Positions 4,126-21,239 of a DNA stretch of 50,109 nt are shown one piece after another. This DNA comes from Shigella phage pSf-2. Position 1 is the first letter of the stretch. Each line of letters starts with the position of its first letter. The position numbers were made by a program, and so were the translations under genes. The stretch lies in sequence record KP085586, one strand, 5' to 3'. Below the pieces are notes generated by a model, which was given only the letters and a program-made list of their open reading frames with translations, had not been told where the DNA came from and did no database searches.

Positions 4126-4183
4126 CTTTTTATTCCTCATCTTGTCTCAATGAAATAACTATACCCGACTTTCGCCGGGTATT

Positions 4184-4201
4184 TTTAGCAATTAGTGCTG
4201 A
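4184..4201 (-). promoter_or_regulatory. 18-bp dyad motif copy (tttagcaattagtgctga on + strand)
   Basis: Overlaps stop of 4192..4443; on minus strand followed after 22 nt by tatagt. Confidence 0.6.
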
Positions 4202-5153: not shown

Positions 5154-5206
5154 TTTTAGTCCTCTCGTTTTGGTGAAATAATAATGCCAGATTCCATTCC
5201 GGCAGT

Positions 5207-5224
5207 TTTAACAAAAAGTGCTAT
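5207..5224 (-). promoter_or_regulatory. 18-bp dyad motif copy (tttaacaaaaagtgctat on + strand)
   Basis: Overlaps TAG stop of 5221..5637; minus strand: 22 nt then cattat, then leader shared with copy at 45967. Confidence 0.65.
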
Positions 5225-5637: not shown

Positions 5638-7652
5638 TCCGGGATATCCTCCATACCGAAGTCTTTGCGTGAAATAATATCTTCTTTCTTCTGGTTGCGT
5701 CGATGAGTTACGCGCACCGGGTGAGCAATATGATGTGAGTACTGCACGATCTTGATTGCGTTCTTCATTCCGATAAAGTAGCGACGCATTTTAGGATCTG
5801 ACACATGAGGCAATACGCCCTTCGTTTTCCATAGCGTACCGCAAATCTTAGAGTCGGACTCAGGGAAGAATTTTTCATACGCCTTGAACTCATCACCATC
5901 ATCGTTAATCAGCGTGTATTTGTATATCACGCCCTTTTGGTTTTTGGTTAGCGTTACCTCAAAATTCTTGACCTCATACCAGTCATTCTTGGTGTACGCC
6001 TTGCCGGACAATTTCAGGTTAGGATCGACAAGTGACACATCACAGCAACGACAAACTCGGGCGACAACGTCATTCTCGGCACCACATCCTTTAACAAGAA
6101 TTTTCCCGGTTCGCTCATCAACCTGGTCCTCGCAAATCTGAGAAATCCAGAAGTGATCGCATCTCTCACCGTCTATAACGTTAACGCATCGGCGAGCGTA
6201 GAAGCTATTAACGCAACCACACTTAGGACACGTTTTCGGGTCTTTGCCGTTTTCAAAACGCTTCTGGAATTGCGCCTGCTCAAGTATCGGATCGAAATAA
6301 AGCTGACCCAACTCATCCATCGTACCTGCGAAATCCCATACCAGATGGTCCTGCTTAACCATTCCCTCAGCAACCTGCCAAGATTTAAGCAGACGCATAC
6401 CCCTACCCAAAAGTTGAATTAACAGTGTGAGCGACCCTATTTTGCGGAGTATGACACTGAAATCCCAATTTGGAACGTTAACACCAGTAGTGAGCGCCAT
6501 TACCTGAAAGGTGTATTTAATTTTTCCGGCCCTTACATCGTCAAGAATCTTCTTGCGCGCTTTGTTGTCTGTGTCGCCAGTGATGATTGCATAGGTACTT
6601 CCCGGAGGAAGTGCCGCCGCCGCCTCTTTGCAGTGACGCACCCCGGCGCATGTAATCAGTACCGCGTTACGCTCTTCAGCCTTTTTGGCAACCATTTGCA
6701 TGATTCGCTGAGTAAGAGATTTATCATGAAGGATCTCATCTTCCATTGCCTTCATATCTTTCTCTGTAAAGTCCTGTACCCCATCCTCGCTTGACGCCTT
6801 GAATTTATCAAGATCGTAGTGAACTCCGTCCGTCGAACCGAATATAGTCGGCACAACAGAACCGAACTCAATAAGATAATTTGTGTCAATATCAGTCACG
6901 CGCTCACGCCAGAATCCAAGCGCTTTCGGATTCTCTACCAGAATAGGAACTACGCCCCGAAATTCAGATCCAGTCATACCAAATATTCTGAGATCGTGAC
7001 CGTGAACCTTTTTACAGCGCCGCATCATTTCCATGATTACGATCGTGTACTGGCTTCGCTTAGTTCCAAGTAAAGGTTTCCCGTCATTACCAATCAGAGG
7101 AATATCCCCGTCCATAATAACTTTCCCTTTCTCGCCCTTCATCTGCTCCATCGTTTCCTTTCCTTCGATGGCTTGCGCAAGATCTTCCCAATCCACCTGG
7201 TGACATTCGTCGATCCCAATTACATGCGGGACAAAATCAGCCAACTCATTATCGAGGCCATTTGCAACCGTACCCTCAGAGCCAACCACGATCGGAAAAT
7301 AGCAGGACTTAATGCCCAATGAGGCTGAGAATATGGAGTTAGTTACCCCGAAATTGTCAATCTCCTCACTATCCTGATCGACAATCTCACCCTGGCGAGC
7401 CAGAACGAGCATTTTTAATCCCATTTTCTGACACTGCTTTGCAACCATAGCAAAAATGATAGTCTTACCAGCAGATACTGACGCTTTAACAAAGAATGGG
7501 TGCTCGTAATTTGATAGGCGTTTCGCGATCTCGGTATAAGCAACAACCTGGTACGGATAAGGAACAACCTCACCAACAGTAAATCGCTCCTGAGTTCGCT
7601 TTATGTAGTCCTCGCCAAGTAATGCAATCTGCTTTTTAATGTTCATTGTCAC
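5634..7652 (-). CDS. SF2 DEAD/DEAH-type DNA helicase with C-terminal Cys cluster
   Basis: Walker A SAGKTI, motif II GIDECHQ, motif VI-like LLGRGMRL, CPKCGC...C zinc cluster. Confidence 0.75.
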   Translation of the reverse strand: MTMNIKKQIALLGEDYIKRTQERFTVGEVVPYPYQVVAYTEIAKRLSNYEHPFFVKASVSAGKTIIFAMVAKQCQKMGLKMLVLARQGEIVDQDSEEIDNFGVTNSIFSASLGIKSCYFPIVVGSEGTVANGLDNELADFVPHVIGIDECHQVDWEDLAQAIEGKETMEQMKGEKGKVIMDGDIPLIGNDGKPLLGTKRSQYTIVIMEMMRRCKKVHGHDLRIFGMTGSEFRGVVPILVENPKALGFWRERVTDIDTNYLIEFGSVVPTIFGSTDGVHYDLDKFKASSEDGVQDFTEKDMKAMEDEILHDKSLTQRIMQMVAKKAEERNAVLITCAGVRHCKEAAAALPPGSTYAIITGDTDNKARKKILDDVRAGKIKYTFQVMALTTGVNVPNWDFSVILRKIGSLTLLIQLLGRGMRLLKSWQVAEGMVKQDHLVWDFAGTMDELGQLYFDPILEQAQFQKRFENGKDPKTCPKCGCVNSFYARRCVNVIDGERCDHFWISQICEDQVDERTGKILVKGCGAENDVVARVCRCCDVSLVDPNLKLSGKAYTKNDWYEVKNFEVTLTKNQKGVIYKYTLINDDGDEFKAYEKFFPESDSKICGTLWKTKGVLPHVSDPKMRRYFIGMKNAIKIVQYSHHIAHPVRVTHRRNQKKEDIISRKDFGMEDIPE

Positions 7653-7715
7653 GTCTATTAATCCTTTGAATCGTTGTAACGTTTACGCTATAATACACGG
7701 CATACAGTAAACGTT

Positions 7716-7733
7716 TTTAGCAAAAAGTGCTAT
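7716..7733 (-). promoter_or_regulatory. 18-bp dyad motif copy (tttagcaaaaagtgctat on + strand)
   Basis: Minus strand: 22 nt then tattat upstream of helicase start; abuts SD of + gene 7746. Confidence 0.65.
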
Positions 7734-7745
7734 AGGAGAATCAAG

Positions 7746-8198
7746 ATGAGTATTCAACGTATCGCAGAGTCAACTGGTGAAATCGATAAACGTCACATCA
7801 ATGGTAACAACGGAACACGACGCGGTAAAGACAAAAAGCCACGACAGCGCTGCGGCTTCTATATTCATAAAGAAGAAACACGCGCCGGATTGCGAGCGCG
7901 ACTTGATGCGCTTATCGAATATTATGGTGGCCCTGCGGCCTGCGCAAAAGCTCTAAAGGTTAGCAATCAGACGGTGCAAGGCTGGAAAGAACGCAACATG
8001 ATTTCGTGGCAAGGTGCTGAAGCTGCGCATCGTGCTTACCGACGACAGGGGTGTAAAGGATTTCGTGCCGCATGGTTGCGATTCGACCTGAAGTTTGACG
8101 GTAACGGCAAGTGCCTTGAGAAGCGATGCAAGAACAAGAAATTTATGCGCGTCGTGAAGAAGGAAGATATCGGGACGACCAATAGCATTTTTAGTTAA
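7746..8198 (+). CDS. HTH DNA-binding protein (candidate transcription regulator)
   Basis: aggaga SD; Cro/CI-like HTH segment CAKALKVSNQTVQGW; basic protein. Confidence 0.55.
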   Translation: MSIQRIAESTGEIDKRHINGNNGTRRGKDKKPRQRCGFYIHKEETRAGLRARLDALIEYYGGPAACAKALKVSNQTVQGWKERNMISWQGAEAAHRAYRRQGCKGFRAAWLRFDLKFDGNGKCLEKRCKNKKFMRVVKKEDIGTTNSIFS

Positions 8199-8199
8199 A
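8182..8199 (+). promoter_or_regulatory. degenerate copy of 18-bp dyad motif (atagcatttttagttaaa)
   Basis: Overlaps TAA stop of 7746..8198; no -10 at 22 bp. Confidence 0.3.
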
Positions 8200-8204
8200 A
8201 CAAA

Positions 8205-8247
8205 CGACGCGTAGCGGGTTAACATCCTTCTACGCGTTTTTTATTTT
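8205..8247 (+). terminator. Rho-independent terminator
   Basis: Stem gcgtag/ctacgc with long loop, then ttttttatttt. Confidence 0.5.
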
Positions 8248-8259
8248 GGAGATCTGGAA

Positions 8260-9195
8260 GTGAACGAAGAATTTATGATGTTTCAGAAAGAGGACGTTTT
8301 GCCGTACATGAAGGGGTTATGGCGCGAGGCTTTCCAATCAATCTGCGGATTGCCGAATGATGTTTTTAATAAGAAACACCAACCTTGCCCTAACTGCGGG
8401 GGTAAGGACCGCTTTCGCTGGACTGATAACCTTAACACTCCGGGCGACGGCGGTGCGATCTGCAACTCATGCGGTAACGACTCTGGAGTCGGTTGGTTGA
8501 TGAAATTAACTGGTATGCCGTACAGCGAATGTATAAATATCCTGGGAAGATTTCTCGGCAAGGTTCCGCAGGAATACATTGTCAAGGCCAACAAAAAAGC
8601 GCGAAGAACTCCGGTAGCTGGCGTCAATGTTATGATGGCAGAACACGAGGCAGTGATGAAAGTTATGGAGCGCACAGAGAAGCGCATAAACACACCTCTA
8701 AGCATGTTTGAGTCGCTACCTACTGAATCATTCGACGTTGGCGTAAAACGTCGAGAGGATGGCGGCGAGAGTGTATTTCACGCCATACCATGTCAACTTG
8801 TACACGAGGACGGTCTTGATGAAGAGTTTTGCAATATTTTGATTATTGATGAGGAGGGTAGGGAGTCATTTTATGCAAAGAAATACACAAGTTGCTCGGT
8901 TGCCGTGACTGGTAAAACTGAAAAAGCGATCTACTTATGCCTTAATTGGATTGATGCTCAGCATATTGCATTTCACACAAAGCAAGAGGTATGGGCCTGC
9001 TTCACTCCTGAAAATCTAGAAATGGTTGCGTACAGATACAAGGGAGATCGGGAGGTAAGGGTGGCGTGCGAACCATCTGATAAAGAAACTTTATACATGG
9101 CAGACGACAGACAATTAAAAATAATCATCCCGAATCAGGGAGGATACCGCTCAGGAATGCAAGCTAAGTTATTCTCAGCAAGTGATCTACTATAA
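8260..9195 (+). CDS. primase-type zinc-ribbon protein (putative DNA primase)
   Basis: CPNCGGKDRFRW...CNSCGN Zn ribbon as in P4/T7-type primases; start may be ATG 8275 not GTG 8260. Confidence 0.5.
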   Translation: MNEEFMMFQKEDVLPYMKGLWREAFQSICGLPNDVFNKKHQPCPNCGGKDRFRWTDNLNTPGDGGAICNSCGNDSGVGWLMKLTGMPYSECINILGRFLGKVPQEYIVKANKKARRTPVAGVNVMMAEHEAVMKVMERTEKRINTPLSMFESLPTESFDVGVKRREDGGESVFHAIPCQLVHEDGLDEEFCNILIIDEEGRESFYAKKYTSCSVAVTGKTEKAIYLCLNWIDAQHIAFHTKQEVWACFTPENLEMVAYRYKGDREVRVACEPSDKETLYMADDRQLKIIIPNQGGYRSGMQAKLFSASDLL

Positions 9196-9217
9196 CCGCC
9201 TTCGGGCGGTTTTTTAT
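9196..9217 (+). terminator. Rho-independent terminator
   Basis: ccgcc-ttcg-ggcgg hairpin followed by ttttttatt. Confidence 0.65.
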
Positions 9218-9223
9218 TGCCCG

Positions 9224-9252
9224 TTGCAAGACTCATGGCGCGATGATAAAAT
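9224..9252 (+). promoter_or_regulatory. sigma70-like promoter for tail-fibre gene (TTGCAA-17-TAAAAT)
   Basis: Near-consensus hexamers with 17-bp spacer, 44 nt before ATG 9296. Confidence 0.5.
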
Positions 9253-9257
9253 CTGTG

Positions 9258-9275
9258 TTTAGCAATTCGTGCTAT
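9258..9275 (-). promoter_or_regulatory. 18-bp dyad motif copy (tttagcaattcgtgctat) in operator-like position
   Basis: Lies 6-23 nt downstream of the -10 above and 20 nt before ATG 9296. Confidence 0.65.
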
Positions 9276-9295
9276 TTACTTAAGGAGTTTATATT

Positions 9296-11080
9296 ATGGC
9301 TTTATATCGACGCGGTACTGCATCAATGGATGCAGACGGAACGGTTCGCGGAACCGATACAAAATGGAAGGATCAGCTTGCTCTGATTCGAGTAGGTGCA
9401 ACTATCGTATTCCTGGAACAACCGATAAAGCTGGCTGTAATCAGCGATATCGTGAGCGACACTGAGTTAAAGGCTATCTCTACTGATGGTCAGACTGCCG
9501 CTGACGGTAAGTATGTGATCCTGCTTAACGATTCACTGACTGTTAACGGATTAGCTCAAAACGTTGCTGAGACGCTTCGATACTATCAAAGCAAAGAGAC
9601 TGAGATTGCGGCATCTATAGATCTGATAAATCAGCTTGATATGAATAAACTTGAGCAAATAGTTGCTGATGTGAATCAGGCGAAATCTGATTCTCAAGCT
9701 GCGCAAAATCAGGCTGAATTAGCGCGTGACGCAGCCAACGCTGCACGCGATGAAACTAACTCAATCAAGAATCAGACGCAACAGATTGTTGACGGTGCTG
9801 TCGGTAGCATCAATGCGGCGAAGGATCAGGCTATAACCGATGTGCAGCAAAAAGAAAATTCATCCATCACTCACATTGACTCAGAAGAAGCGGCGGCGAT
9901 TCAGGCAATTAATGACGCAAAAGGCGATCTGTCAGGTTACGTTAATGACGCTCAGACGGCAGCACAAACGGCGACCTCTGCAAAAAACGACGCTCAGGCA
10001 GCGCGTGACGATGCGGTAAGCTCAAAAGATGCGGCTGCGGTAAGTGCTCAAGAAGCAAAAGACGCAGCTAACAGCATCAATGCTGAAAATCTTTTAACTA
10101 AGGATGGCAATCTAGCTGGTCTTGAGGATAAAAAAGAGTCAAGAAAAAATATTGGGTTAGGTGAAAATGATGCTGTTAACTTTCTTACTATTAACACCAC
10201 TGGCGCTATAGGTGCAGGAAGGAATTCATGGGACGGTTCTAGCTGGGGTAGTCAGTCCATATTGTCATCATTGATGATTATGTCACCTGATGGAATATCT
10301 ACGCCAGGTATTTACGTCAGAAAAGAACGTAGCGATAATGGTTATGCTGGGGCTTTATTATTTTATGAGGGGGCAAACTACTTCGAGACTAACAATAGAT
10401 TCAGGGCCAATCAGTTTTTATGCCAGAAAACAGCTATGGGTTATAACCAGATGTGGTCTGCTTCATGCTTCCAGGGTAATGCTTACACCGCTGATAGTGG
10501 TGCTGAAAACTATCAATCACTTATTGCTGGATCGTGTGACACCAGAGGTCAGGGATACGCTGGCGGCGTAGCATTTGGCATGATGACTACGGGTAATCCT
10601 GAATGGCCCAGGGCACAAATATCAGTAGGCGCTCAAGATAGGGATGGAGTAGGCAATATTGGTCTGCAAATGCATTTCAGGTTTATGGCTTCAGGGCAAA
10701 TATCTTACGCTGGACCGCAAGTGGCTGGAAGTTTCCAACAGGTTCCGGCATCTGACAGAAATATAAAGCACAGCATAAAGGATGATGAATCAAGCATTGC
10801 ATACAACAACATAAAATCAATGAGATTTAGGAACTTTATATTTAACGATGATGAGCAAGAAAGGGTAAGGAGAGGTGTTATAGCTCAGGAGATAGAAGAG
10901 ATCGACAATCTATATGTTAAGAGAAGGGTGTATGAGAGCCACGAGCTAAACGGGCCAAAAGTTGAAAGGCTTGAGCTTGATACAACTCCTTTATTGCTTG
11001 ACACTATGAGAGCTTTACAGGATACAATAAAGAAAGTTGAAGAGTTACAAGAAGAGATAAAAATGTTGAAGTCCAAATGA
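9296..11080 (+). CDS. tail fibre protein with C-terminal intramolecular chaperone (peptidase S74-like) domain
   Basis: Ala/Gln-rich coiled N-part; C-terminal SDRNIKHSIK...GVIAQEIEEI autoproteolytic chaperone signature. Confidence 0.8.
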   Translation: MALYRRGTASMDADGTVRGTDTKWKDQLALIRVGATIVFLEQPIKLAVISDIVSDTELKAISTDGQTAADGKYVILLNDSLTVNGLAQNVAETLRYYQSKETEIAASIDLINQLDMNKLEQIVADVNQAKSDSQAAQNQAELARDAANAARDETNSIKNQTQQIVDGAVGSINAAKDQAITDVQQKENSSITHIDSEEAAAIQAINDAKGDLSGYVNDAQTAAQTATSAKNDAQAARDDAVSSKDAAAVSAQEAKDAANSINAENLLTKDGNLAGLEDKKESRKNIGLGENDAVNFLTINTTGAIGAGRNSWDGSSWGSQSILSSLMIMSPDGISTPGIYVRKERSDNGYAGALLFYEGANYFETNNRFRANQFLCQKTAMGYNQMWSASCFQGNAYTADSGAENYQSLIAGSCDTRGQGYAGGVAFGMMTTGNPEWPRAQISVGAQDRDGVGNIGLQMHFRFMASGQISYAGPQVAGSFQQVPASDRNIKHSIKDDESSIAYNNIKSMRFRNFIFNDDEQERVRRGVIAQEIEEIDNLYVKRRVYESHELNGPKVERLELDTTPLLLDTMRALQDTIKKVEELQEEIKMLKSK

Positions 11081-11083
11081 TAA

Positions 11084-11110
11084 AAGCCCCGCAATGCGGG
11101 GCTTTTCTTA
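11084..11110. terminator. bidirectional Rho-independent terminator between convergent genes
   Basis: aagccccgc-aat-gcggggctt hairpin with T-runs on both strands. Confidence 0.6.
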
Positions 11111-11527
11111 TCAGAATGGGATATCATCGTCAAATGTTGACTGAGGGTTCGGTTGTGGTTGTTGTTGAGTTCGCTGTTGTTGCTGAGGCGATCGCTGTTG
11201 TTGATTGCTTTGTCCTCGTTGACTGAATATCAACTTAGGGAAATCAGCAGCCTGCAATGAATTGTAAGTCGTTCCGTTGTGCTCACGGGATGAGATCTTC
11301 AACGTTTCGCATGATACAGATATAACTCGACCAACCTGGAACGCTTCACGATACCAGTCAGCAAGGCCAGGCTTTCCACCATCACTAAAAAAGAATGTGT
11401 AGTTGGTGTATTCTCGATCGCCATCACGAGGTTTATAGCTTTCTGCCAGTTCGATGATATAAGTATTGCCGCCGTTACGTTCCAGAATCTTTGGTTCTTT
11501 GCGGATCTCGCCAGTGATAATATGCAT
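11111..11527 (-). CDS. ssb: single-stranded DNA-binding protein
   Basis: OB-fold N-part, Gln/Pro-rich linker, acidic tail ending DDDIPF. Confidence 0.8.
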   Translation of the reverse strand: MHIITGEIRKEPKILERNGGNTYIIELAESYKPRDGDREYTNYTFFFSDGGKPGLADWYREAFQVGRVISVSCETLKISSREHNGTTYNSLQAADFPKLIFSQRGQSNQQQRSPQQQQRTQQQPQPNPQSTFDDDIPF

Positions 11528-11573
11528 TATTTTCTCCCATAAAATTTATGGGCGACCGAAGCCGCCCGGGTGA

Positions 11574-12221
11574 TTATTCGAAGTTGGTGATTGATTGAGA
11601 TTGTACAGGCTTCGCGCTCGTTGCTTCAACCTGTTTTTTCTGTTCCGGTTGCGCCGGGCGAATACCACGAGCTTTACCGATCTCAAACTTAGCCTTAAGT
11701 GCGTTGTAGTGATCCTGAATGATTGACTTGCTTGCCGTGTCAGTCTGGCGGTAAGCGTTAGCCCATACCTCTTTCAGTGATTCGATATCTTCACACGCAT
11801 CAAGTTCTTTTTTCCAGTCCTTGACAGATTTTACTGCAAGCTGAGCATCGTCATCACTCTGGCTAATCCCCAGCGCCGCAGCGAGTGAGTAACGTCGTGC
11901 ATAAGTCATCGCTGAGCCTACACCTTGAGGATCGCGCTTTGCAATAGGCATCATCATGAAGAATTTGGCCCACTGCCCGGATTTGTGAATCAGCATCGTT
12001 TCAAGATGGAAGGTTGTTTCCGTGCTGGTGTCCAGCATTGATTGCAGGATCATAATATCGTTGTCGGTTAGCGCCGGGCTTACTGCCGCCATCATTGCAT
12101 CAAGAGTTGCGTATGAATTTTTCAGGTGATTGTTTTTAGCGTCCTTCTTTGCTTTCGCGAATTTGTTGCGAGCATTGAACAGTGCAGGAAGGATTTCGTT
12201 TGTTTCTGGTGATAATTGCAT
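11574..12221 (-). CDS. single-strand annealing recombination protein (Erf-like candidate)
   Basis: GSAMTYARRYSLAAALGI segment; between SSB and exonuclease; start moved to ATG 12221 with accaatcaggag SD. Confidence 0.5.
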   Translation of the reverse strand: MQLSPETNEILPALFNARNKFAKAKKDAKNNHLKNSYATLDAMMAAVSPALTDNDIMILQSMLDTSTETTFHLETMLIHKSGQWAKFFMMMPIAKRDPQGVGSAMTYARRYSLAAALGISQSDDDAQLAVKSVKDWKKELDACEDIESLKEVWANAYRQTDTASKSIIQDHYNALKAKFEIGKARGIRPAQPEQKKQVEATSAKPVQSQSITNFE

Positions 12222-12277
12222 CTTAACTTCTCCTGATTGGTGTATGAGGTGCATTATAACACCTCATTAATTATTTG

Positions 12278-12295
12278 TTTAGCTATTTGTGCCGT
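12278..12295 (-). promoter_or_regulatory. degenerate copy of 18-bp dyad motif upstream of TATAAT box for Erf-like gene
   Basis: 14/18 match; minus strand has tataat about 21 nt downstream inside an 8-bp inverted repeat. Confidence 0.3.
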
Positions 12296-13360
12296 TTACT
12301 TATTTTGGTAACGCACCCATGATGGCGTTTCAAGTTCGATCTCGCTTGCGTCGCCAGCGTACCCAGGCCAAACATCCATTTCAGAGCAAGCCTTGTAAGT
12401 GTGGACTACGCTAATGTACTGGTTACGACCGATCCTGATTTGCTCCATAGTCATACGGTAAGCCAGTGCGATATAAGGCTCTTTTTTCTCCTGCGCAAGC
12501 AATCGAACTACGATCGGAATATCTTCCGGGAAGTTTCCTTCAAAAGCGCCAGCCTGGATTGCGCGACGTAGCAGGTCATGCTGCAATGCCATCTTCAGGT
12601 AATAGCCGTGATTGTATGCCAGTCTCGGGAACTCTAACGGGTTGGCGCTCATCGTAGTTTTGAAATCTGTGATAATCAGTGCTTCCGGGAAAATTACGTC
12701 TTCAAATACCGGATCACCATTCTCATCATAACCAGTCAGTACACGACCTGGTACATTCTCTTTGTAGTCCAGATGATCTAGTCGAACCTTAACCTTGACG
12801 CCGGATATTTCACCGAAGATTGAGATTTCACGCTGCGCTGTTTCGCTGTTGATGCACGCTTCATGATCGGGGTTCTGTTCAAGTATAGCTCTCATCTTCA
12901 TGCAGGCGTCGTATTTATCAGCGTCGACGAGTTTCTTTCCTTCAGCGCGCGCCTCAGCTTCTGCGATCAGTTCAATCAGGTATTGAACGTTAAGGTCTTC
13001 GCCACAATCAACCATCATTTTGATGAGGTCCGGGTACTGCTTACCGGATGTACCTTTCAGGCCAAAAGATTTTAATTTTGCTGCCAGCGCTGCCTGAGAA
13101 GTAATGAGATCTTTAAACTCTGCCGGAGCCGGACAACGCGCATACGATGCAGTAAACAGATCTCGGCTCTCAAAGTTGGTGTGCGACTGAGTGCCAAACT
13201 CCAGCGCTTTAGTCGTCTCGTTCTTCTTGAATCGCCAGTTAGCCGGGCAAGTCTGATAAATTTCTGCAAGGCTCGAACCGCTTACATACTCTGCCGCCCA
13301 ACCTTCGTTGCTATGATACTCGTCATTAGAAAGCTGACTTGATGTGAATACTTGGAACAT
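12296..13360 (-). CDS. PD-(D/E)XK family exonuclease (recombination exonuclease)
   Basis: VRLDHLD and IITDFKTT motifs; first gene of recombination operon. Confidence 0.55.
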   Translation of the reverse strand: MFQVFTSSQLSNDEYHSNEGWAAEYVSGSSLAEIYQTCPANWRFKKNETTKALEFGTQSHTNFESRDLFTASYARCPAPAEFKDLITSQAALAAKLKSFGLKGTSGKQYPDLIKMMVDCGEDLNVQYLIELIAEAEARAEGKKLVDADKYDACMKMRAILEQNPDHEACINSETAQREISIFGEISGVKVKVRLDHLDYKENVPGRVLTGYDENGDPVFEDVIFPEALIITDFKTTMSANPLEFPRLAYNHGYYLKMALQHDLLRRAIQAGAFEGNFPEDIPIVVRLLAQEKKEPYIALAYRMTMEQIRIGRNQYISVVHTYKACSEMDVWPGYAGDASEIELETPSWVRYQNK

Positions 13361-13391
13361 TGCGTTTATCTCCTTCGTTTACGATGAATCC

Positions 13392-13419
13392 ATTATAGCC
13401 ATTAACAGCGTTTAGTCAA
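13392..13419 (-). promoter_or_regulatory. sigma70-like promoter (TTGACT-16-TATAAT) for recombination operon
   Basis: Near-consensus hexamers 31 nt upstream of ATG 13360. Confidence 0.5.
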
Positions 13420-13639
13420 TCGGATACATGTAATTGGTGTGTAATAGCGTGTCTATATCGCTCAAGTTACAACCAGCATTAACGGAATCAATGGCTTAAG
13501 TCTATTTTTATGTGATGTCTACTGTGTAATACTTGTAACCGCTTTTTCTTAGAAATACAGGGATAGCTACAAGTAGAATCCATATTGATTAAATTTTGAA
13601 CATATATGATAGAAATTTGACGAATCAATCAAATCACCA

Positions 13640-13810
13640 GTTACACGATAGACAACTGTTACACAACAATAATTATATATATAAAGCTAAAATTAAATAT
13701 TATCTATCTATATATATTATATATAGTTTTTATCATATCCCTCTGCGGTCGGGTAGGGTGGATTTTGTAACACCCGTTCCGGTTACAAAAATAGACACCT
13801 GTTACACGAA
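13640..13810. repeat. AT-rich divergent control region with direct repeats TAGACAnCTGTTACAC (x2) and inverted repeat TTTTGTAAC-N10-GTTACAAAA
   Basis: Repeats at about 13644-13660 and 13790-13806; palindrome at about 13765-13792; (TA)n tract 13700-13725. Confidence 0.45.
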
Positions 13811-13828
13811 AAAATTGTAATCGCACTA

Positions 13829-13857
13829 TTGCAATAAAAGTAAATGCGACATACAAT
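13829..13857 (+). promoter_or_regulatory. sigma70-like promoter (TTGCAA-17-TACAAT) for lipoprotein gene
   Basis: Hexamers with 17-bp spacer, 29 nt before ATG 13887. Confidence 0.45.
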
Positions 13858-13886
13858 GCAATCACACTAACGACGAGGACATACAA

Positions 13887-14117
13887 ATGAAAAAGTTAAT
13901 CACCATTATCACCGCTGCATTCATCCTGACTGGTTGTGCTCAGAATCTTAAAAATGGCGACTGCGTTACTTACGCGTACGGCTCTTGCATGATGCGATTC
14001 GTTGATGGTAAAAAGGTTCCGGCTGGCGAAATTGACATGCGATTCAAAGGTCTGTCATCCGACGACGATCAGGGTAACTTTAGCGGCAAGGTATCAATCA
14101 AAACTAAAGAGTGGTAA
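13887..14117 (+). CDS. small lipoprotein, Cor-like superinfection-exclusion candidate
   Basis: Signal peptide with lipobox LTGC; 76 aa; lies next to J gene on opposite strand as cor does in FhuA-dependent phages. Confidence 0.55.
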   Translation: MKKLITIITAAFILTGCAQNLKNGDCVTYAYGSCMMRFVDGKKVPAGEIDMRFKGLSSDDDQGNFSGKVSIKTKEW

Positions 14118-14119
14118 TT

Positions 14120-15076
14120 ATGGGGCAAGGAATATACATAAATCTAAATGACGGTCGCCCGGCAATGGAGATAACTTCAGGGCTTCGCGCCCCGTCATGG
14201 TGCGGACCTATACAGGCTGACGGGGTTGATTCATCTGGATCGGTTTTTGATTTTGGTTTGCAAATGAGTCCAGGGTCTACTGCTTTTTGCCTTCCATCTC
14301 AGGCTATCTACATAGACGATATGGATTACATCCCGGAGGTGTATTATTTGACCAGTTTTCAGAAGGTCAATGATTCAACCGGACGAATAACGGTAGGTAA
14401 TTTTAACGGGCACGGTGGAAGGAGGATGAGATTTTATGGCAACTGTTACGAAATCCTCCCCGCTCAGGCTGGAAGTCAGGGGATACTTGTTAACGATTCA
14501 ACGAACTTCGCAGCGATACCGAATAACGCCAGATTGATGAGCGCTGCATTTGTTGGGGGTATTCAGGTTAACGGTCAGGCTCAGTTGCCAGTACAGGGCG
14601 TTCCTTTCGGTATGTGGGATAATCCAAACGTAACACTTGAATCTGACGGCAATACAATATGGTGCAGGGATGCAAACTATAACGGGATTGATGACGTTGG
14701 CGCGAGCGTATACGTTCAACTCGTAATATTTAATAACACCCCACCACCTCCCGGCCCTGGAATCACTATGAGCAATCCTGCTGGTCAGATCGTTTTCTCA
14801 AGCGTTCGACGTCCTTTTGTTCTCGGCGGGACTATGGCGATAAATGACGGGTGGCAGTGGTGCGGTGGATTTTTCCCAATACTGAGAACAGGTACGATAT
14901 GCAGAGTTACAGGTGGATATAATAACATTCGATACAAGGGCGTTTGCATGAGCGGCGGTAACGTGAGAAGCACACCCGGAACAAGGGTGGGTAACTATTC
15001 AACCCAAAGCGGAGCGCAATTCCCTTTCAATATAAACATTTCAATGCCAATTCCTTTCACTCCAAACATGTATTAA
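14120..15076 (+). CDS. hypothetical protein co-transcribed with lipoprotein (Gly/Asn-rich, PPPPGPG linker)
   Basis: ATG 14120 three nt after upstream TAA; track start 14111 is GTG; followed by bidirectional terminator. Confidence 0.55.
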   Translation: MGQGIYINLNDGRPAMEITSGLRAPSWCGPIQADGVDSSGSVFDFGLQMSPGSTAFCLPSQAIYIDDMDYIPEVYYLTSFQKVNDSTGRITVGNFNGHGGRRMRFYGNCYEILPAQAGSQGILVNDSTNFAAIPNNARLMSAAFVGGIQVNGQAQLPVQGVPFGMWDNPNVTLESDGNTIWCRDANYNGIDDVGASVYVQLVIFNNTPPPPGPGITMSNPAGQIVFSSVRRPFVLGGTMAINDGWQWCGGFFPILRTGTICRVTGGYNNIRYKGVCMSGGNVRSTPGTRVGNYSTQSGAQFPFNINISMPIPFTPNMY

Positions 15077-15100
15077 AAAAGGGGCCAATCGGCCCCTTTC
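15077..15100. terminator. bidirectional Rho-independent terminator
   Basis: aggggcc-aatc-ggcccct hairpin flanked by A-run and T-run. Confidence 0.6.
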
Positions 15101-15102
15101 TG

Positions 15103-18100
15103 TTACCAGACACCAACAACCACTCGACCACCGTTAGGTAGGTTAACCGTGATCCCGTTATTGTTTATCTGAACTGTGTTATTTGTTCCGTTAAATGCAA
15201 ACTCTCCGTTATTTGCGTAAATTCTACCCCTCACTGTTGCATTCATGAATGAAGCGTCGCCATTCTTGTTTATGGCCCATCCATTATTCCCATCCCAATT
15301 GTTAGATTGAATCCAGTTTCCAATCATGGCATTAGTAATAAATCCATCCTTGATGATCGCGCTACTTAAAATAACCTGACCATTCTCAACAACAAAAGGA
15401 TATTGAGTCTGACCATTCATTCCTGTCATGATGGCAAATCGTGACGCCTCGAATAAGATTTGCGCCTTAACCACAGCGCCTGAACCAATCAGAGACATAG
15501 CCATACCAGCACTGTATTCTTGGCCGTTATACTTCAGACCGAGCTTGACTCCGTACATTGCACCAGTCGAATCCGCATTGCTCCACGAATCAAGTTTTTG
15601 AGAAAGTGCCGCCTCATTATTCCCAAGCCTCGCGCTTAATGACAAGTCAGCTTGCGTTCTCGCCTCAGTCTCGTTTGCTATAGCCTCTCTGATATCAGTC
15701 AAACTTGCCTGAATATCATCACCAATCTCTGCCCTGAGTTGGTCAATTTCACGCGATAGCGCTCCGGTTTCAGTTGCGATAACTTCACGCAATTCGCTAT
15801 TGCTTGCGCTAATCTGATCACCAAAACTTGCCCTTAACTGCTCAACTGCTGTTACTCGCGCCTCAGTCTCATCAGCAATTAGCTTCAGTGATTTGGTGTA
15901 CTCTGCTTTTCGTTTTCCGTTCTCCTTCTTCATGTAGATCGCGTCTTTGTCATTAGCTAGAGCGTTCTCAATTGCTGCCTCTGCGTTCGCTGCGTTCTGC
16001 GCCGCGTTGTCGGTTGCGTTATCAACAAGCCACTCGTAACCCGGCGAGTTTTCGATATCGACAGAAATCTCTCCAATGATATCGTCAACGTTTGTTGATG
16101 CCATGCCTCTGACAAAATCAGTCCACTGAGACGCGTTACCGATCCTGTCAACCGTCCTTACCCGATACCACACAATATTCCCTCCCGGCATCGGTGAGTG
16201 ATAATACTCATGCTGCGGATACGGAATCAAAGAAAGCAAACTTGCGTTATCCACTGTTCCATCCGGTGACTGCTGCAACTCCGTATAGGCCGTATCTCCA
16301 GAACCATCAGAGAACCCCCATTTTGTACGGATACCAAAAACAACATCATCCGTAGCTGTAAGGTTAATCGGTCGGCCCGGTTCACCCTGTTTACCCGTCA
16401 ACGTTGCCGCGACGATATTTGACCAGCCTGAAGTTGTGCCAGAACCAGCGACGGAGCGCACGCGAACCTGATAGTTGCCAGCGTAAATCCCTTCAACATA
16501 AACCTCCTTGTTTGCCGTCTGCGGGACGTTCTGCCAGTTGCCGTTATCCTTTCGCCACTGGACGTCATAGAAAACTGCGTACGGTACTTTATCCCAGCTA
16601 ACAATCATCGTTTCTACGCTCATCCCCTGGACGATTCGTGACTCTGAGGACACTTGCACGTTTTCCGGTCTAGGGATCTGATCTGGTTCAACGATGCTCG
16701 TCGGTCGGTCGTCGATATTAACTCCGTAATCAATCTCATCGTACTTGTTAGGATCGTACTCCACCGCCGTTATTTTGTAGGTAAATTCCTCATCATCATC
16801 GCCCTTGTCGATTTTTGTCACGACGTACTGCTGTAACGCAATGTCGGTGCGGTCGATAGCGAATACCGTGTTAGGCTTCACAGGAAAGCCAAAGCCAATG
16901 TTAACCTCTATAGTCTTACCATCCGCACTAACACTTGATATTGTGCGCTTCACGGGCTTGCCATCTGGCTTATTTACGATAATAAAGTCACCCGCGCGTG
17001 CATCCACCCGGAACGGCAAGAAAATCTGACTACCGGATACTTCGAGCAAGCGCCCTGATAGGTTCATCGTCAAGTTACTTGACCAGAAGTTATCAGCTAT
17101 TGCCACAACATCTCCGATTGTCGGGATCATACCCTCAAGTCCGGTAGCGAAGTTTACCGTAGTGCTGCGGAGGTTAGTTTTCAGAATCCATCTCCCGCGT
17201 CGGTTGGCCTCGCTTCGACGTGTGCAGCCGATCGCTGTAATGCTCGTTACGTTGTTCCCGAACCGTAGAGTAGCCTCACGATCGAATACTGGCTCAACGT
17301 CCTGCTGATACATGTTTTGCTCGTCGTCAAACATCACATTACACGTCGTGTACATGCTCTTTTCGCTTGCAAACGTGTAGGAGAAGTCACCATTAACCAC
17401 GTTGTCGTTAGTGAAGATGTACGCAGGCTCACGCGGCCTATCGATGATTACCGAAATGCTTTCGCCATTCCAAAAGCTCATACCTCGAAAGATTGAGCAA
17501 ATATCTCGAATAACCTTGTAAGCGTCAGTCTGAGACTGGATTATCACGTCGCAAAGGTATCGAGGTTCCGTCCCGCCCTTCCCATCAGGAACCATCTGAT
17601 CGCAATATTGCGCAGCCTCGTAGAGCGCCCATTTATCGACAGCGATACCAAGCTCTTTCTGATCCAAGCCGTAACGCTGATTAATCATCAGGTCATAAAG
17701 AACCCACGCAGGATTATTCGTCCATGCTTTTTTGAAAGTGCCATCCCAATTGCCGTTGTATGTTCGCGATTCTGGGTCGTAGTTCGACGGAACGCTTACA
17801 ATCTTCCAGCGCTTACGAATTGAGATCGTAGGTAACTGGTTTGGGAACATCTTCGAATCGAACTCTACGAAAAGAAGACCAGTCAGAGGATATCGGAATT
17901 TGGCATCAATGACCTCGGCATAGCTTCTTACCTGGATTGCATCAACGACATTCGAGTCATTGGAATCAGGCGTCTTTCGAACAACTCTGAATATTACCTG
18001 ATTGTTGAAGTTAGGCAGGTTTACGCGACGGCTTCGATCATAACCTGACATTGTTTTACCTTCGATTACGTCAGTAAGAACAGTCTCAAACGAACCGCCA

Positions 18101-18552
18101 TCAACCGCTTGCTGCACCTCGTACTCAACTCGAACGCCGTTTTTATCACCATTGCTTTCAATTCGTACACCTCGAGGCATAAACATTTTGATGCGTATTG
18201 CCGATAGTGTTTTATTGGTTACTGAGATCGTGTATGGGTTATCGGTAGTAACCTCACGATTTACAGTTACCTCACTTGAGCTATCTTCCATGCCCTTGAT
18301 GTATTCCTGCGTCTGAGTTCCCGGCCTGAACTCAGCCCTTACCCCTTCGAAGTTGAATGATCCATCCTCGTTTTGCACCGGAACTGAGTTAAACATCAAC
18401 TGCTTTAGGCTGAATGTTTCGTCAATTTCACCATCAGATACAGCTAACAGGATCTTGATTTTGTTGATTGAGATTAGATTGTCCTCCATCTCAACTGGGT
18501 TATGAGGCTTCTGTGACCCACCTTTAGATCCGCTTATCACTTTTTTAATCAT
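15103..18552 (-). CDS. host specificity / central tail fibre protein (lambda J-like)
   Basis: 1149 aa, last gene of I-K-L-M tail-tip cluster, FN3-like segment, beta-rich C-terminus. Confidence 0.85.
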   Translation of the reverse strand: MIKKVISGSKGGSQKPHNPVEMEDNLISINKIKILLAVSDGEIDETFSLKQLMFNSVPVQNEDGSFNFEGVRAEFRPGTQTQEYIKGMEDSSSEVTVNREVTTDNPYTISVTNKTLSAIRIKMFMPRGVRIESNGDKNGVRVEYEVQQAVDGGSFETVLTDVIEGKTMSGYDRSRRVNLPNFNNQVIFRVVRKTPDSNDSNVVDAIQVRSYAEVIDAKFRYPLTGLLFVEFDSKMFPNQLPTISIRKRWKIVSVPSNYDPESRTYNGNWDGTFKKAWTNNPAWVLYDLMINQRYGLDQKELGIAVDKWALYEAAQYCDQMVPDGKGGTEPRYLCDVIIQSQTDAYKVIRDICSIFRGMSFWNGESISVIIDRPREPAYIFTNDNVVNGDFSYTFASEKSMYTTCNVMFDDEQNMYQQDVEPVFDREATLRFGNNVTSITAIGCTRRSEANRRGRWILKTNLRSTTVNFATGLEGMIPTIGDVVAIADNFWSSNLTMNLSGRLLEVSGSQIFLPFRVDARAGDFIIVNKPDGKPVKRTISSVSADGKTIEVNIGFGFPVKPNTVFAIDRTDIALQQYVVTKIDKGDDDEEFTYKITAVEYDPNKYDEIDYGVNIDDRPTSIVEPDQIPRPENVQVSSESRIVQGMSVETMIVSWDKVPYAVFYDVQWRKDNGNWQNVPQTANKEVYVEGIYAGNYQVRVRSVAGSGTTSGWSNIVAATLTGKQGEPGRPINLTATDDVVFGIRTKWGFSDGSGDTAYTELQQSPDGTVDNASLLSLIPYPQHEYYHSPMPGGNIVWYRVRTVDRIGNASQWTDFVRGMASTNVDDIIGEISVDIENSPGYEWLVDNATDNAAQNAANAEAAIENALANDKDAIYMKKENGKRKAEYTKSLKLIADETEARVTAVEQLRASFGDQISASNSELREVIATETGALSREIDQLRAEIGDDIQASLTDIREAIANETEARTQADLSLSARLGNNEAALSQKLDSWSNADSTGAMYGVKLGLKYNGQEYSAGMAMSLIGSGAVVKAQILFEASRFAIMTGMNGQTQYPFVVENGQVILSSAIIKDGFITNAMIGNWIQSNNWDGNNGWAINKNGDASFMNATVRGRIYANNGEFAFNGTNNTVQINNNGITVNLPNGGRVVVGVW

Positions 18553-18598
18553 GATGTTTACCTTTTTGTGCTATTTATCTGTGGACTCATTATACAGG

Positions 18599-18626
18599 CG
18601 AAAAAAAACCCGCGCAAGGCGGGTTA
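18599..18626 (-). terminator. intra-operon terminator/attenuator between I-like and J-like genes
   Basis: acccgc-gcaag-gcgggt hairpin followed on minus strand by T8; same stem-loop as at 20788. Confidence 0.5.
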
Positions 18627-18629
18627 ATT

Positions 18630-19229
18630 TTAACTCATATCCTCGGCATAAGAACCTGCTGAGAAAGTTGCGCCACCTCCGGCGCGATATCCATACGGGA
18701 CCGGGAGAGGGTATCCCGCCGCCGTCGTATTGACAGCACCGCCGAACGCGTACGAAGGTTTATTCTTGCTTGATTGAACTTCAAAGTTTGCGCCACCCGG
18801 CTGCGGTGAAATCATCTGCATTACGCCGCCCAGCACCATAGCGCCGCCCATCATAAACAGAGACGAGGACATTGTGCCCATTAAAGCCAGAGACGCGCCG
18901 CCAGTATAGAATGCTGCAACCATTATTGCCGCGCCCAATACAACCTGGAATAGACCTCCCGTCTTAGAACCAGTGGGGATCGGTACGATTCTTATCTCTT
19001 TCGCGCACTTGAATTTTTCCTCTTCATGGTGTCCCACGTTAACGCCATCCACAAATATTGCAAACTTGCTACGTGATCCGACTTCACTCTGCATGTATTC
19101 TTTAAACCCGTCCACCTGACTGGATAGCGCACGGATAGCTTCCGGGTAAGAGTCAACAGCAAATCGGTGAAAGACGCCAAAGCGCCTTCCAAGTGAACCT
19201 GATAATTTGATTACTTTTACATCATTCAT
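18630..19229 (-). CDS. tail assembly protein (lambda I-like)
   Basis: 199 aa between K-like and J-like genes; Gly-rich hydrophobic C-terminus. Confidence 0.7.
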   Translation of the reverse strand: MNDVKVIKLSGSLGRRFGVFHRFAVDSYPEAIRALSSQVDGFKEYMQSEVGSRSKFAIFVDGVNVGHHEEEKFKCAKEIRIVPIPTGSKTGGLFQVVLGAAIMVAAFYTGGASLALMGTMSSSLFMMGGAMVLGGVMQMISPQPGGANFEVQSSKNKPSYAFGGAVNTTAAGYPLPVPYGYRAGGGATFSAGSYAEDMS

Positions 19230-19993
19230 AATTTGAGATCCTTATGGCGAACAATTAAAACAGTGTGTTCCTGATACCAGCCTGAATAAATATCACGTCG
19301 CGACAGCTTACCGAAGGCGTGATGCAAGATCTGATTATCACCCAGGTAAATCCCTGCGTGATTCCATACCGGAACATTTTGCCCTATTTGCATGATTACC
19401 ATATCACCAAATGAAGGCTGATTCTGATCTGGAATCTCAACGAATCCATCTTGCTTGTAATAATCCTGATAGAGATTTATTCCATACTCCGGTTTCCACC
19501 ATTCAAAATTCAATCGCCGATCGCGTAATTCTACGCCGTGCTCTTTGTGCCACGCCATAACAAGACCGTAACAGTCGAATGATCCTAATGACCACGGACG
19601 ACCAATCAGAGGTAATTTCTCCGGCTTCACAAATCGCATATCTCCTTCCGGCACGCTAACAATAATCCAGGTAACTTCCATCTCGTTGCACATGCACGTA
19701 TCGTGAGCGCTTGGTAGAGTTGTAGCCCCATCTCCGGTGTGGCTGTGAACAATTGCGATCGTAGTTGATTCCGAATCGTCCTCAATACATGCGTATTGCA
19801 CTGCGTCCATCATGAAGTGATTTTCAGGATCACGGTGTACATTATCAACGCGATGGTATTTTTGCACGCGGCCCTTTTGGGTGACTACCCCGCAGCATTC
19901 GCGGGGGTATTCTTCCTGAGCGTGAGTCATAATTTCAAGTTTAATTTTTGCACTAATCATTGATTTTTCCTCTGTAGTGAAGCGACAGCGCAA
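19226..19993 (-). CDS. tail assembly protein (lambda K-like; MPN/JAB plus NlpC/P60-like domains)
   Basis: HSHTG metal-binding motif and Cys/His residues; position after L-like gene. Confidence 0.8.
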   Translation of the reverse strand: MRCRFTTEEKSMISAKIKLEIMTHAQEEYPRECCGVVTQKGRVQKYHRVDNVHRDPENHFMMDAVQYACIEDDSESTTIAIVHSHTGDGATTLPSAHDTCMCNEMEVTWIIVSVPEGDMRFVKPEKLPLIGRPWSLGSFDCYGLVMAWHKEHGVELRDRRLNFEWWKPEYGINLYQDYYKQDGFVEIPDQNQPSFGDMVIMQIGQNVPVWNHAGIYLGDNQILHHAFGKLSRRDIYSGWYQEHTVLIVRHKDLKL

Positions 19994-20739
19994 CCGCCAA
20001 AATCCAATTCATTGTTTGCACCGAATCTCAGGCGGCAGGCCGTTACTGTTCCTGGGCAAAAATCCAGCGAAGGATCGTCTACCGGATTATTGTCTTTATC
20101 GAAGTAACCATTTTGCCCGTTGTATCCGCACCCTTTCCCGGTTTTATACCATCCCCTCTGCGCCCAATAGCAGACACTTTGTGTGAGTCTGGACGGGATC
20201 ATGATGCCGTCCATATCGTAAGGTGACGTTAGATCGAACCGCGCAATGCTTTTATCAACATAGTTCGGACGCTCGATATAGTATACCAGTTTGCGGTAAG
20301 CTCCGTCAGCGATTGAGCCATCAGATTGAATCAAGTCCTTTTGAGTTATCCAGATTGTCACCTTCGCCTGCATCAATCCGTTATATGCGCGAATCATTGC
20401 AGACACTCGACTGTCAATGTTTGCCACTGTCAATTGTGGCTTTGTGGCCTTGCCGGAACTGTCGAACGAGATCCCGGATATACCGAAAGGTCGCGCGCCG
20501 TATTGCTCGCCACGGAAGGTGATTTCTTTCGGCGGTAGCGTTCCGGTTTGCTGGGCCTGCATGATTTCTTCTGGAGTGTACTGGATATTCTCACCGTGGA
20601 ATCGGTACACCTGAGCGCCGAACTTACTACCATCAACTTCAATGAGAGTGATTATCTCTCCCGGATATAGTGATTGAAGGCAGTTGTGAAACAGGCTCTT
20701 TCCGCTTTCTTCATCATAAAGTTTTTTGTTTTCGCTCAT
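19957..20739 (-). CDS. minor tail protein (lambda L-like)
   Basis: 260 aa between M-like and K-like genes; C-terminal Cys cluster. Confidence 0.8.
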   Translation of the reverse strand: MSENKKLYDEESGKSLFHNCLQSLYPGEIITLIEVDGSKFGAQVYRFHGENIQYTPEEIMQAQQTGTLPPKEITFRGEQYGARPFGISGISFDSSGKATKPQLTVANIDSRVSAMIRAYNGLMQAKVTIWITQKDLIQSDGSIADGAYRKLVYYIERPNYVDKSIARFDLTSPYDMDGIMIPSRLTQSVCYWAQRGWYKTGKGCGYNGQNGYFDKDNNPVDDPSLDFCPGTVTACRLRFGANNELDFGGCAVASLQRKNQ

Positions 20740-20779
20740 TTATTTTTCCTCTTGTTTACCTGCAACCATTCTACAGCTA

Positions 20780-20810
20780 CAAAAAAACCCGCGCAAGGCG
20801 GGCTTTTGTT
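20780..20810. terminator. terminator-like hairpin between M-like and L-like genes
   Basis: cccgc-gcaag-gcggg stem-loop flanked by A7 and T-run; near-identical to hairpin at 18608. Confidence 0.5.
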
Positions 20811-20818
20811 ATATGGCG

Positions 20819-21172
20819 TTACTCCATAGATGTAAACTGCTCCATAAACGTAACGTTAATTTCCATCACGTCGCGTGATACTGGCTTAGCTCCCAGGCTG
20901 TTAGGCTTTACAACCCATATTCCGATCTTCCCGTCCGGCGGCGTCCATGCGAACGGTTTAATTCTGTGAGAATCGCAGAAGTTGTAAACAGCCATGAAAT
21001 CCTCACCAGCGTAGACAATCGAATACTCGCGTCTCGTGGTGTTGAATCCAGAAGATGCAAGCTGCATGTAGCCGTTGCCAAACTGTATGGATCTGTCATT
21101 ATTGGTAGTGGTAAGGGAGCCGCCGCCCCCTTGAACCTGCGTACACCAACCGAAAGTGTCAAGTGCAGCCAT
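20819..21172 (-). CDS. minor tail protein (lambda M-like)
   Basis: FGNGYMQ...YS...WTPP pattern matching lambda gpM; directly downstream of tape measure. Confidence 0.85.
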   Translation of the reverse strand: MAALDTFGWCTQVQGGGGSLTTTNNDRSIQFGNGYMQLASSGFNTTRREYSIVYAGEDFMAVYNFCDSHRIKPFAWTPPDGKIGIWVVKPNSLGAKPVSRDVMEINVTFMEQFTSME

Positions 21173-21239
21173 TATTAGCCTCCTGTTTTTTCCTGAATGT
21201 AATTGTAAACCTCACCGCCCTGTGAACAAGACTCTCGAA

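Follow-up and report, generated by a model that had tools for sequence, protein, structure and literature searches.

What function is served by the long non-coding region that separates the divergent exonuclease and lipoprotein genes of the T1-like phages? The question is addressed here for Shigella phage pSf-2. The window analysed is the whole of sequence record KP085586 (50,109 bp), which is a full T1-like genome (Tunavirus, Drexlerviridae), circularly permuted. The region lies at positions 13361-13886 (526 bp; region 1), and its location between the two divergent genes, given in a first-pass annotation made from the sequence alone, was confirmed. That annotation had likened it to an origin of replication or a repressor/IHF-type operator array. 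The evidence supports a functional array of protein-binding sites coupled to a tract that is prone to unwinding: the repeated words are enriched, the sites show purifying selection, a paralogous copy exists, and the architecture is kept while the word changes; origin and transcriptional array were not separated by computation. Region 1 may be one of two paralogous iteron-plus-unwinding-element origin modules, embedded between divergent promoters. This assignment is tentative, and is held with slightly less than even confidence. A total of 59 phage records match at least 80% of the length of region 1 with 90-98% identity, all of them T1-like Tunavirus; phage T1 shares 93% identity with it.

Repeated words and the TA tract of region 1

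Region 1 contains 7 of the 26 genomic copies of GTTACA/TGTAAC. The genome rate predicts 0.27 copies; in 2000 dinucleotide-preserving shuffles of the region the expectation was 0.51, the maximum was 4 and no shuffle reached 7. These are the GTTACA words that had been noticed at first pass, together with two copies of TAGACA(A/C)CTGTTACAC placed about 145 bp apart. The two copies start at 13649 and 13792, 143 bp apart, and form a plus-strand direct repeat pair, TAGACAACTGTTACAC (13649-13664) and TAGACACCTGTTACAC (13792-13807). The composite box TAGACANNTRTTACA (TAGACA-NN-TRTTACA), allowing at most one mismatch, has five matches in the genome compared with 0.09 expected, and none of 100 shuffles reached five. 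All five matches are confined to two loci, region 1 and a second large non-coding region (region 2). An extra, sixth copy with one more spacer base is located on the minus strand at 13440-13455. The repeat unit is a hexamer, NNNACA (GTTACA, ATTACA, TAGACA, GTGACA), with three to four units per array at 9-10-bp spacing; about 15 such hexamers are present in 13427-13821.

The arrays lie between two promoters. The sigma70-type P_exo (TTGACT-16-TATAAT; 13392..13419, minus strand) matches the consensus at 11/12 positions and serves the exonuclease-recombinase-SSB operon. P_cor (TTGCAA-17-TACAAT; 13829..13857, plus strand) matches at 9/12 positions and is moderate. Thus, of the strong sigma70-like promoters predicted on both sides, the one on the exonuclease side stands, whereas the one on the cor side does not reach that strength. 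Promoter-like matches in region 1 as a whole were not above shuffles (4 vs 3.9). In an alignment of 14 distinct Tunavirus sequences, which is the basis of the conservation reported for region 1 below, P_exo is invariant and P_cor is conserved; the form TTGACT-16-TATAAT or TAGAAT is also kept in the Sertoctavirus phage SRT8 and in TLS-type phages.

From P_exo rightwards, the first element is a distal hexamer triplet on the minus strand (TAGACA-cgct-ATTACA-cacca-ATTACA; 13427..13455), which starts 36 nt upstream of the P_exo -35 and has conserved core bases. It is followed by a single invariant GTTACA word (13466..13471, plus strand) and by a conserved minus-strand triplet with 9-bp spacing (GTTACA-agt-ATTACA-cag-TAGACA; 13516..13539). 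A conserved central block (13582..13639), variable in 8 of its 58 columns, includes ATAGAAAT, a sequence that recurs in region 2. The next triplet, GTTACAC-ga-TAGACA-ac-TGTTACAC (13640..13665, plus strand), holds the first of the two iteron-like repeats; it is nearly invariant and adjoins the TA tract. Beyond the tract lies the perfect 9-bp inverted repeat with its N10 spacer, TTTTGTAAC-N10-GTTACAAAA, which was found as first described, with arms at 13763-13771 and 13782-13790 (13763..13790 in all). It is the only perfect inverted repeat in region 1, and its arms are 19 bp apart from centre to centre. The arms are invariant while the 10-nt spacer is variable, which is the classic footprint of a protein site. 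The second iteron-like repeat belongs to the triplet GTTACA-aaaa-TAGACA-cct-GTTACAC (13782..13807, plus strand), in which TAGACA begins 37 nt upstream of the -35 of P_cor. A minus-strand TGTAAT word (13816..13821) closes the array.

The (TA)n tract of the first-pass annotation is located at 13668-13735. It has a length of about 70 bp and a G+C content of 9%, and is a candidate DNA-unwinding element with repeats on both sides, the triplet at 13640-13665 on the left and the sites at 13766-13821 on the right. The left flank carries three plus-strand sites, and the right flank one minus-strand, three plus-strand and one minus-strand site; these orientation calls are soft because TGTnACA is itself nearly palindromic. 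Duplex stability was calculated from nearest-neighbour stacking energies in 80-bp windows. The TA tracts of region 2 and region 1 were the two least stable windows of the genome (z = 6.35 and 5.66, respectively), and the next unrelated window had z = 3.25. The two tracts are likewise the least stable 80-bp windows in T1 and in the distant phage TLS; across the three genomes the tracts gave z = 5.0-6.4 and the next windows 3.2-3.5. The hairpin or cruciform potential of both tracts showed no excess over shuffles (z from +1.1 to -1.2).

The conservation of these elements was compared with that of their surroundings, with 12 sequences used for the exonuclease gene. Variable columns numbered 9 of 94 in the hexamers, 3 of 68 in the TA tract, and 3 of 57 in P_exo and P_cor together. 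The remaining intergenic positions were variable in 96 of 307 columns, and the third codon positions of the adjacent exonuclease gene in 165 of 300. Fisher tests against the remaining intergenic positions gave p = 1e-5 for the hexamers and p = 6e-7 for the TA tract. The same pattern of conservation was observed for region 2 in eight Tunavirus sequences. Judged from these alignments, the hexamers and the TA tract are under strong purifying selection.

The second module and its relatives in Drexlerviridae

All composite boxes outside region 1 are found in region 2, a large divergent non-coding region at 43990-44632. The stretches 13648-13846 and 44223-44421 can be aligned collinearly, in the same orientation, and share 65% identity over 212 alignment columns. 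The two modules share the same order of elements: plus-strand hexamers at the TA tract, a short G+C-richer spacer, a minus-strand or palindromic site, a plus-strand triplet, TGTAAT, and a rightward ATAGCAC-type promoter. In both, a minus-strand triplet beside a leftward promoter lies about 100 bp to the left of the plus-strand array. In region 2 this is TAGACA-gc-TAGACA-aat-GTTACAC (44101..44123, minus strand), placed upstream of a leftward TTGACA-17-CACAAT promoter at a distance of 39 nt. Four phased plus-strand hexamers (TAGACA, AAGACA, TACACA, ATTACA; 44204..44238) adjoin the TA tract of region 2 (44236..44314), which has a G+C content of 10%, is the least stable window of the genome, and is conserved in eight Tunavirus sequences. 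The palindromic TTGTCACAA, the triplet TAGACA-aat-ATTACA-gtc-GTGACA and TGTAAT follow at 44337..44391 (plus strand), collinear with 13763-13821. This alignment and the shared order indicate that region 1 and region 2 (about 44100-44420) are paralogous copies of one module.

Comparisons with more distant phages rest on architecture, because region 1 is unalignable outside Tunavirus; outside that genus, BLAST aligned no more than the initial ~85 nt (P_exo), in Sertoctavirus. Through the exonuclease protein (42-100% identity), 45 loci were collected, and in 44 of them an uninterrupted A/T stretch of 11-24 nt lies 288-357 nt upstream of the exonuclease start. The enriched words are specific to the lineage: TTACA/TAGAC in Tunavirus, GATTA and TTACA in SRT8, GAACA/AACAA in TLS-type phages, and GTTAC and GTATA in a further lineage (L047). 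SRT8 has four (G/A/C)TTACA words with 9-11-bp spacing against its TA tract, and TAGACA-aaaa-ATTACAC-ag-ATTACAC on the opposite side. The TLS-type phages carry composite boxes such as GTGAACA-atg-GAACAC, and the L047 lineage combines GTTACA with GTATAC. TLS also has two paralogous copies of the module, one upstream of recE and the other at the record ends. The copy at recE has neither a cor gene nor a rightward promoter; its TA tract and distal boxes are kept, directly after the terminator of the tail-fibre gene. The divergent arrangement is therefore not essential. Taken together, these loci show an arrangement that persists throughout Drexlerviridae, with a repeated word that shifts by lineage. 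The word changes with the phage lineage although all of these phages infect E. coli, which argues for a phage-encoded reader and not for a host factor.

Two further sequences were noticed in region 2. A LexA-box-like sequence, TACTGTATATATAAACAC (CTG-N10-CAC), lies at 44159-44176; its core is invariant in eight Tunavirus sequences and its flanks vary, and its second arm is CAC or CAT, not CAG. At the equivalent of 44095-44125, the T1 sub-lineage has three tandem 9-bp repeats, GTTAATCGT, where the window phage has TGTAACATTTGTCTAGCTGTCTA. The word at this place differs, and the 9-bp period is the same.

The origin reading and its candidate readers

The anatomy of the module and the presence of an MCM-like helicase with a winged helix fit an origin best, and origin and transcriptional roles need not be exclusive. 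In the proposed mechanism, a phage-encoded protein would bind the hexamers cooperatively along the helix. The bound protein would then melt the TA tract and load the helicase, after which the DnaG-type primase could prime. Outward transcription from P_exo and P_cor might add negative supercoiling and aid the opening, and the same bound protein may feed back on both promoters. Many iteron replicons combine an origin with regulatory functions, and the same could hold here.

The T1 annotation lists a DnaG-type primase, a superfamily 2 (SF2) helicase, an SSB, an Erf-type recombinase and a 'putative ATPase'. The last is a DUF3987 protein (PF13148, E = 2.5e-42; PHROG 'DNA helicase') and is a candidate initiator-helicase. 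Its gene runs across the ends of the record, with the N-terminal 455 codons at 48745..50109 (plus strand), where the MCM-like protein starts, and the C-terminal 66 codons plus stop, which encode the winged-helix domain, continuing from window position 1 at 1..201 (plus strand). The AlphaFold model, built with 75 homologues, has a pLDDT of 90.7 and shows a three-helix bundle at the N-terminus, an AAA+ core, and a winged helix at the C-terminus. A Foldseek search with this model returned solely MCM subunits among the top 50 matches. The last 66 residues are modelled as a winged helix (pLDDT 85; H-S-H-H-S-S), with a best TM-score of 0.71 to the C-terminal winged helix of archaeal MCM. The model thus gives the phage an AAA+ ring helicase that ends in a winged helix, like those of the elements with SaPI/SCCmec-type origins. 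The DUF3987 proteins have been classed as SF6 replicative helicases with a C-terminal winged helix by Kazlauskas et al. (PMC4889955), and one DUF3987 protein was demonstrated to be an active helicase (PMC11724360).

The DUF3987 helicase would thus be the first candidate reader of the hexamers, through its C-terminal winged helix. Alternative candidates are its own N-terminal three-helix bundle, the Cro/C2-like Orf23, whose gene lies beside the primase gene (7746..8198), and two small helix-turn-helix (HTH) proteins. A 135-aa HTH protein is encoded directly after the helicase gene (209..616), and a RipR-like protein of the phage has 138 aa. When the helicase, the 135-aa HTH protein and Orf23 were compared with PDB sequences by sequence and profile searches, nothing significant emerged, and the helicase has no detectable sequence similarity to solved Reps. 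A link of its winged helix to the origin-binding domain of the P4 alpha protein was considered and set aside, as that domain was absent from the Foldseek matches. The TLS word GTGAACA resembles the P4 iteron, TGTTCACC.

The closest parallels are the origins of the Staphylococcus aureus pathogenicity islands (SaPI) and of the staphylococcal cassette chromosome mec (SCCmec). The winged helix of the SaPI Reps reads six to twelve iterons of 5-6 nt on both sides of an AT-rich region, and the Reps are self-loading (PMC9371898). Region 1 is similar in having short iterons split around an AT-rich region, some perhaps in opposite orientation, and a possible cognate AAA+ ring helicase with a C-terminal winged helix (SF6/MCM-like in the case of SaPIbov1 Rep and Cch). 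However, the SaPI origin lies immediately downstream of rep, whereas the modules described here are away from the helicase gene. They also differ in occurring twice per genome, in having 9-bp-phased triplets of two words (GTTACA, TAGACA), in lying between promoters, and in being paired with a DUF3987 helicase; they are candidate sites only.

Other phage origins share some of these features. SPP1 has a two-site origin, oriL and oriR, in which composite boxes bound by G38P lie beside an AT-rich segment. In P4, the alpha protein uses its winged helix to bind type I iterons in ori and crr. The winged-helix origin-binding domain of P4 has been described (PMC4889955). In both phages, as here, two distant repeat arrays per genome adjoin an AT-rich segment, and in P4 the winged helix is fused to the helicase. 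There is no sequence relationship to either phage, however; the SPP1 initiator is a separate protein, and the T1-type modules carry promoters. The lambda origin consists of four ~19-bp iterons and an AT-rich region inside the O gene, and is activated by transcription from pR. It is comparable in its tandem initiator sites by an AT-rich unwinding region and in the proposed help from nearby transcription, but the sites described here are intergenic 6-mers, whereas the lambda iterons sit in the initiator gene. No O or P homologues are present in the T1 annotation, and lambda-type iterons were sought in the TLS paper and none were found (PMC11447400).

A wider proposal would be that the T1-like phages replicate from two sister origins of the SaPI/SCCmec kind, whose triplets are read by a self-loading DUF3987 helicase without the host DnaA, DnaB and DnaC, with a specificity that co-evolved (TTACA/AGACA in the T1 type, GAACA in the TLS type). 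In this full form the proposal is rather doubtful.

No origin was identified in the TLS or SU57 papers (PMC11447400, PMC7718038). No origin or transcript map of T1, Rtp or TLS was found in the searchable literature, whose coverage does not include the 2004 T1 genome paper, and no description of these boxes or of the paired TA tracts was found there. The kind of element is already well known, both as iterons with an unwinding element and as two-site phage origins. T1 belongs to the classic set of seven T phages, and the T1-like phages are notorious contaminants and common therapy candidates. The present analysis turns a vague repeat-rich spacer into a precise pair of loci, for which the sites, a putative unwinding element and a few candidate binding proteins are named. 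If the origin reading is true, this would be the first origin defined for the T1 phage family and the first cognate origin or DNA site for a DUF3987 (MCM-like) phage helicase. It would also extend the SaPI-like self-loading logic to a virulent coliphage, and might provide an engineering handle for T1-like phages, for example in origin-dependent plasmids or replication-targeted defence studies. If the boxes are instead the sites of a regulator, they would mark the family's early switch.

Alternative functions and neighbouring elements

Several observations weigh against an origin. The gene of the helicase (48745..201) is not adjacent to the modules; region 2 is 4.3 kb away and region 1 ~13 kb. 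Helix 3 of its winged helix is acidic and hydrophobic, unlike that of a usual sequence reader, and the fold that this domain matches best, the C-terminal winged helix of MCM, does not read DNA in a sequence-specific way. Conservation of the TA tract extends to the single bases, which a mere low-stability element would not need. Cumulative GC skew tracks only gene orientation and transcription, and gives no origin signal. In addition, three composite boxes lie 36-39 nt upstream of -35 hexamers and are oriented with transcription, like activator sites, and a promoter stands at the end of both modules.

The last two points lead to the main rival of the origin reading, which is a purely transcriptional array. 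The triplets would be operator or activator sites for a phage regulator (such as Orf23 or the RipR-like HTH proteins) that times the divergent early promoters of both regions, and the TA tract would be a UP-like, bent or insulating spacer. At P_exo, P_cor and the leftward promoter of region 2, the box begins upstream of the -35 by 36, 37 and 39 nt, respectively. This is a class-I-type activator position, and therefore the arrays could be purely regulatory. Several HTH proteins are encoded by the phage, and a lone GTTACA (7675-7680) occurs in the 94 bp that separate the divergent SF2 helicase and Orf23 genes, on the downstream side of the helicase promoter. However, TLS retains the distal boxes and the TA tract where there is no promoter on that side. 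An extent of ~400 bp with some 15 sites is far beyond the need of two promoters, and the coincidence with the two least stable duplex stretches of three genomes would be unexplained. The sites are also direct repeats with 9-10-bp phasing, located upstream of the -35 and -10 and not overlapping them, unlike Cro/CI operators; an operator array of the Cro/CI type, with 14-18 bp palindromes over the -35/-10, was rejected on this ground. A purely transcriptional role for the arrays is thus possible, though on the unlikely side.

The sites might also belong to host proteins borrowed by the phage, such as DnaA, OmpR- or ArcA-type regulators, IHF, Fis or H-NS. The tandem NNNACA half-sites at about one helical turn presumably resemble OmpR-type tandem boxes. 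A candidate IHF core consensus, AATCAATGGCTTA, lies at 13486..13498 (plus strand) and is one of six in the genome; its specified positions are conserved and its N positions are variable among the Tunavirus sequences. AT-rich TA steps are typical targets of H-NS and Fis. On the other hand, the repeated word differs among T1-, SRT8- and TLS-type phages, all of which grow on E. coli, and this points to a co-evolving phage-encoded reader. A DnaA-dependent, oriC-type origin was rejected: with at most one mismatch, region 1 contains no TTATNCACA box and region 2 contains one, and there is no GATC cluster. GATC is absent from both 13361-13886 and 43990-44632, compared with 250 copies in the genome; the phage encodes a Dam methylase. 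Host-protein sites are improbable as the explanation of the arrays.

A slightly poorer prospect still is a pac module recognised by the terminase small subunit, in which clusters of short repeats surround a central segment, as in the pac of phage P1. The first nucleotide in the records of T1, JMPW1 and JMPW2 maps to window position 44513, ~200 bp from the TA tract of region 2, and sits in the inverted repeat TTGCA-cacca-TGCAA (44498-44513). The TLS record likewise begins at the restriction-mapped pac end, with a HindIII site at 5876 and a pac-HindIII fragment of ~5882 bp (PMC11447400). However, the conserved block at the genome end (44420-44600) occurs in region 2 alone and is not part of the duplicated module. 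Region 1 is 30 kb from the end, a second pac end has not been reported, and the position of the module is tied to the exonuclease promoter across the family. The block at 44420-44600 is a candidate pac region, and because it has no counterpart in region 1, pac is treated here as a separate, neighbouring element.

It is most improbable that region 1 is partly a gene (a 46-codon open reading frame at 13488..13628, minus strand) or a short RNA that runs through the TA tract to a hairpin at 13739-13760: the frame is open in 14/14 Tunavirus sequences and annotated in T1 as hypothetical protein CPTT1_049, and a terminator-like hairpin was called at 13741-13758, but the frame starts with TTG and was rejected because its substitutions show no bias towards any codon position (variable columns per position 8/13/12 vs 16/6/165 in the exonuclease gene), and the hairpin was dropped as a terminator or short RNA because it lacks covariation (0 compensatory pairs by RNAalifold in 12 distinct sequences) and an Rfam scan of 12800-14400 gave no match at E up to 1. 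The CPTT1_049 frame, which overlaps two hexamer sites, is probably an over-annotation, to judge from its substitutions.

The exonuclease gene (12296..13360, minus strand) encodes a recE-like protein (PDDEXK/DUF3799; T1 Orf29 'exodeoxyribonuclease VIII') and is the first gene of the exonuclease-recombinase-SSB operon. The lipoprotein gene (13887..14117, plus strand) is of the cor type (PF24052 phage lipoprotein; T1 Orf30 / Cor).

P_cor is a degenerate form of a family-wide ATAGCAC-type promoter element, and aligns with the ATAGCAC element of region 2. A 21-nt intergenic direct repeat of Drexlerviridae, aaATAGCACnnnTTGnTAAAA, oriented with transcription, was described in the TLS paper as being of unknown function (PMC11447400). 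The boxes of regions 1 and 2 do not match this repeat (ATAGCAC-N3-TTGnTAAAA); they are a different word and occur at two loci instead of ~25. The two kinds of repeat are alike in their phage family, intergenic location and orientation with transcription, whereas the boxes of the modules differ in word and flank the TA tract. Each module terminates in one 21-nt element, at 44394 in region 2 and as a degenerate copy at 13822-13840, overlapping P_cor, in region 1.

The form ATAGCAC-N3-TTGyTAAA has about 25 copies in the genome, in front of gene clusters. Examples are found at 37062, 38550, 40097, 41384 and 42404 on the minus strand, and at 44394, 45503, 45967 and 46301 on the plus strand. The copies lie ~22 nt upstream of a TATAGT- or TATTAT-like -10, which is often TGn-extended, and a short G+C-rich palindrome is frequently located between. 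This spacing puts the element at about -50 to -32, which is a place for an activator or alpha-CTD contact and not that of a normal -35. All intergenic copies of the 21-nt repeat point with transcription according to the TLS paper (PMC11447400). In the window, the ATAGCAC-type elements at 24743 and 28508, both on the plus strand, oppose the flanking minus-strand late genes.

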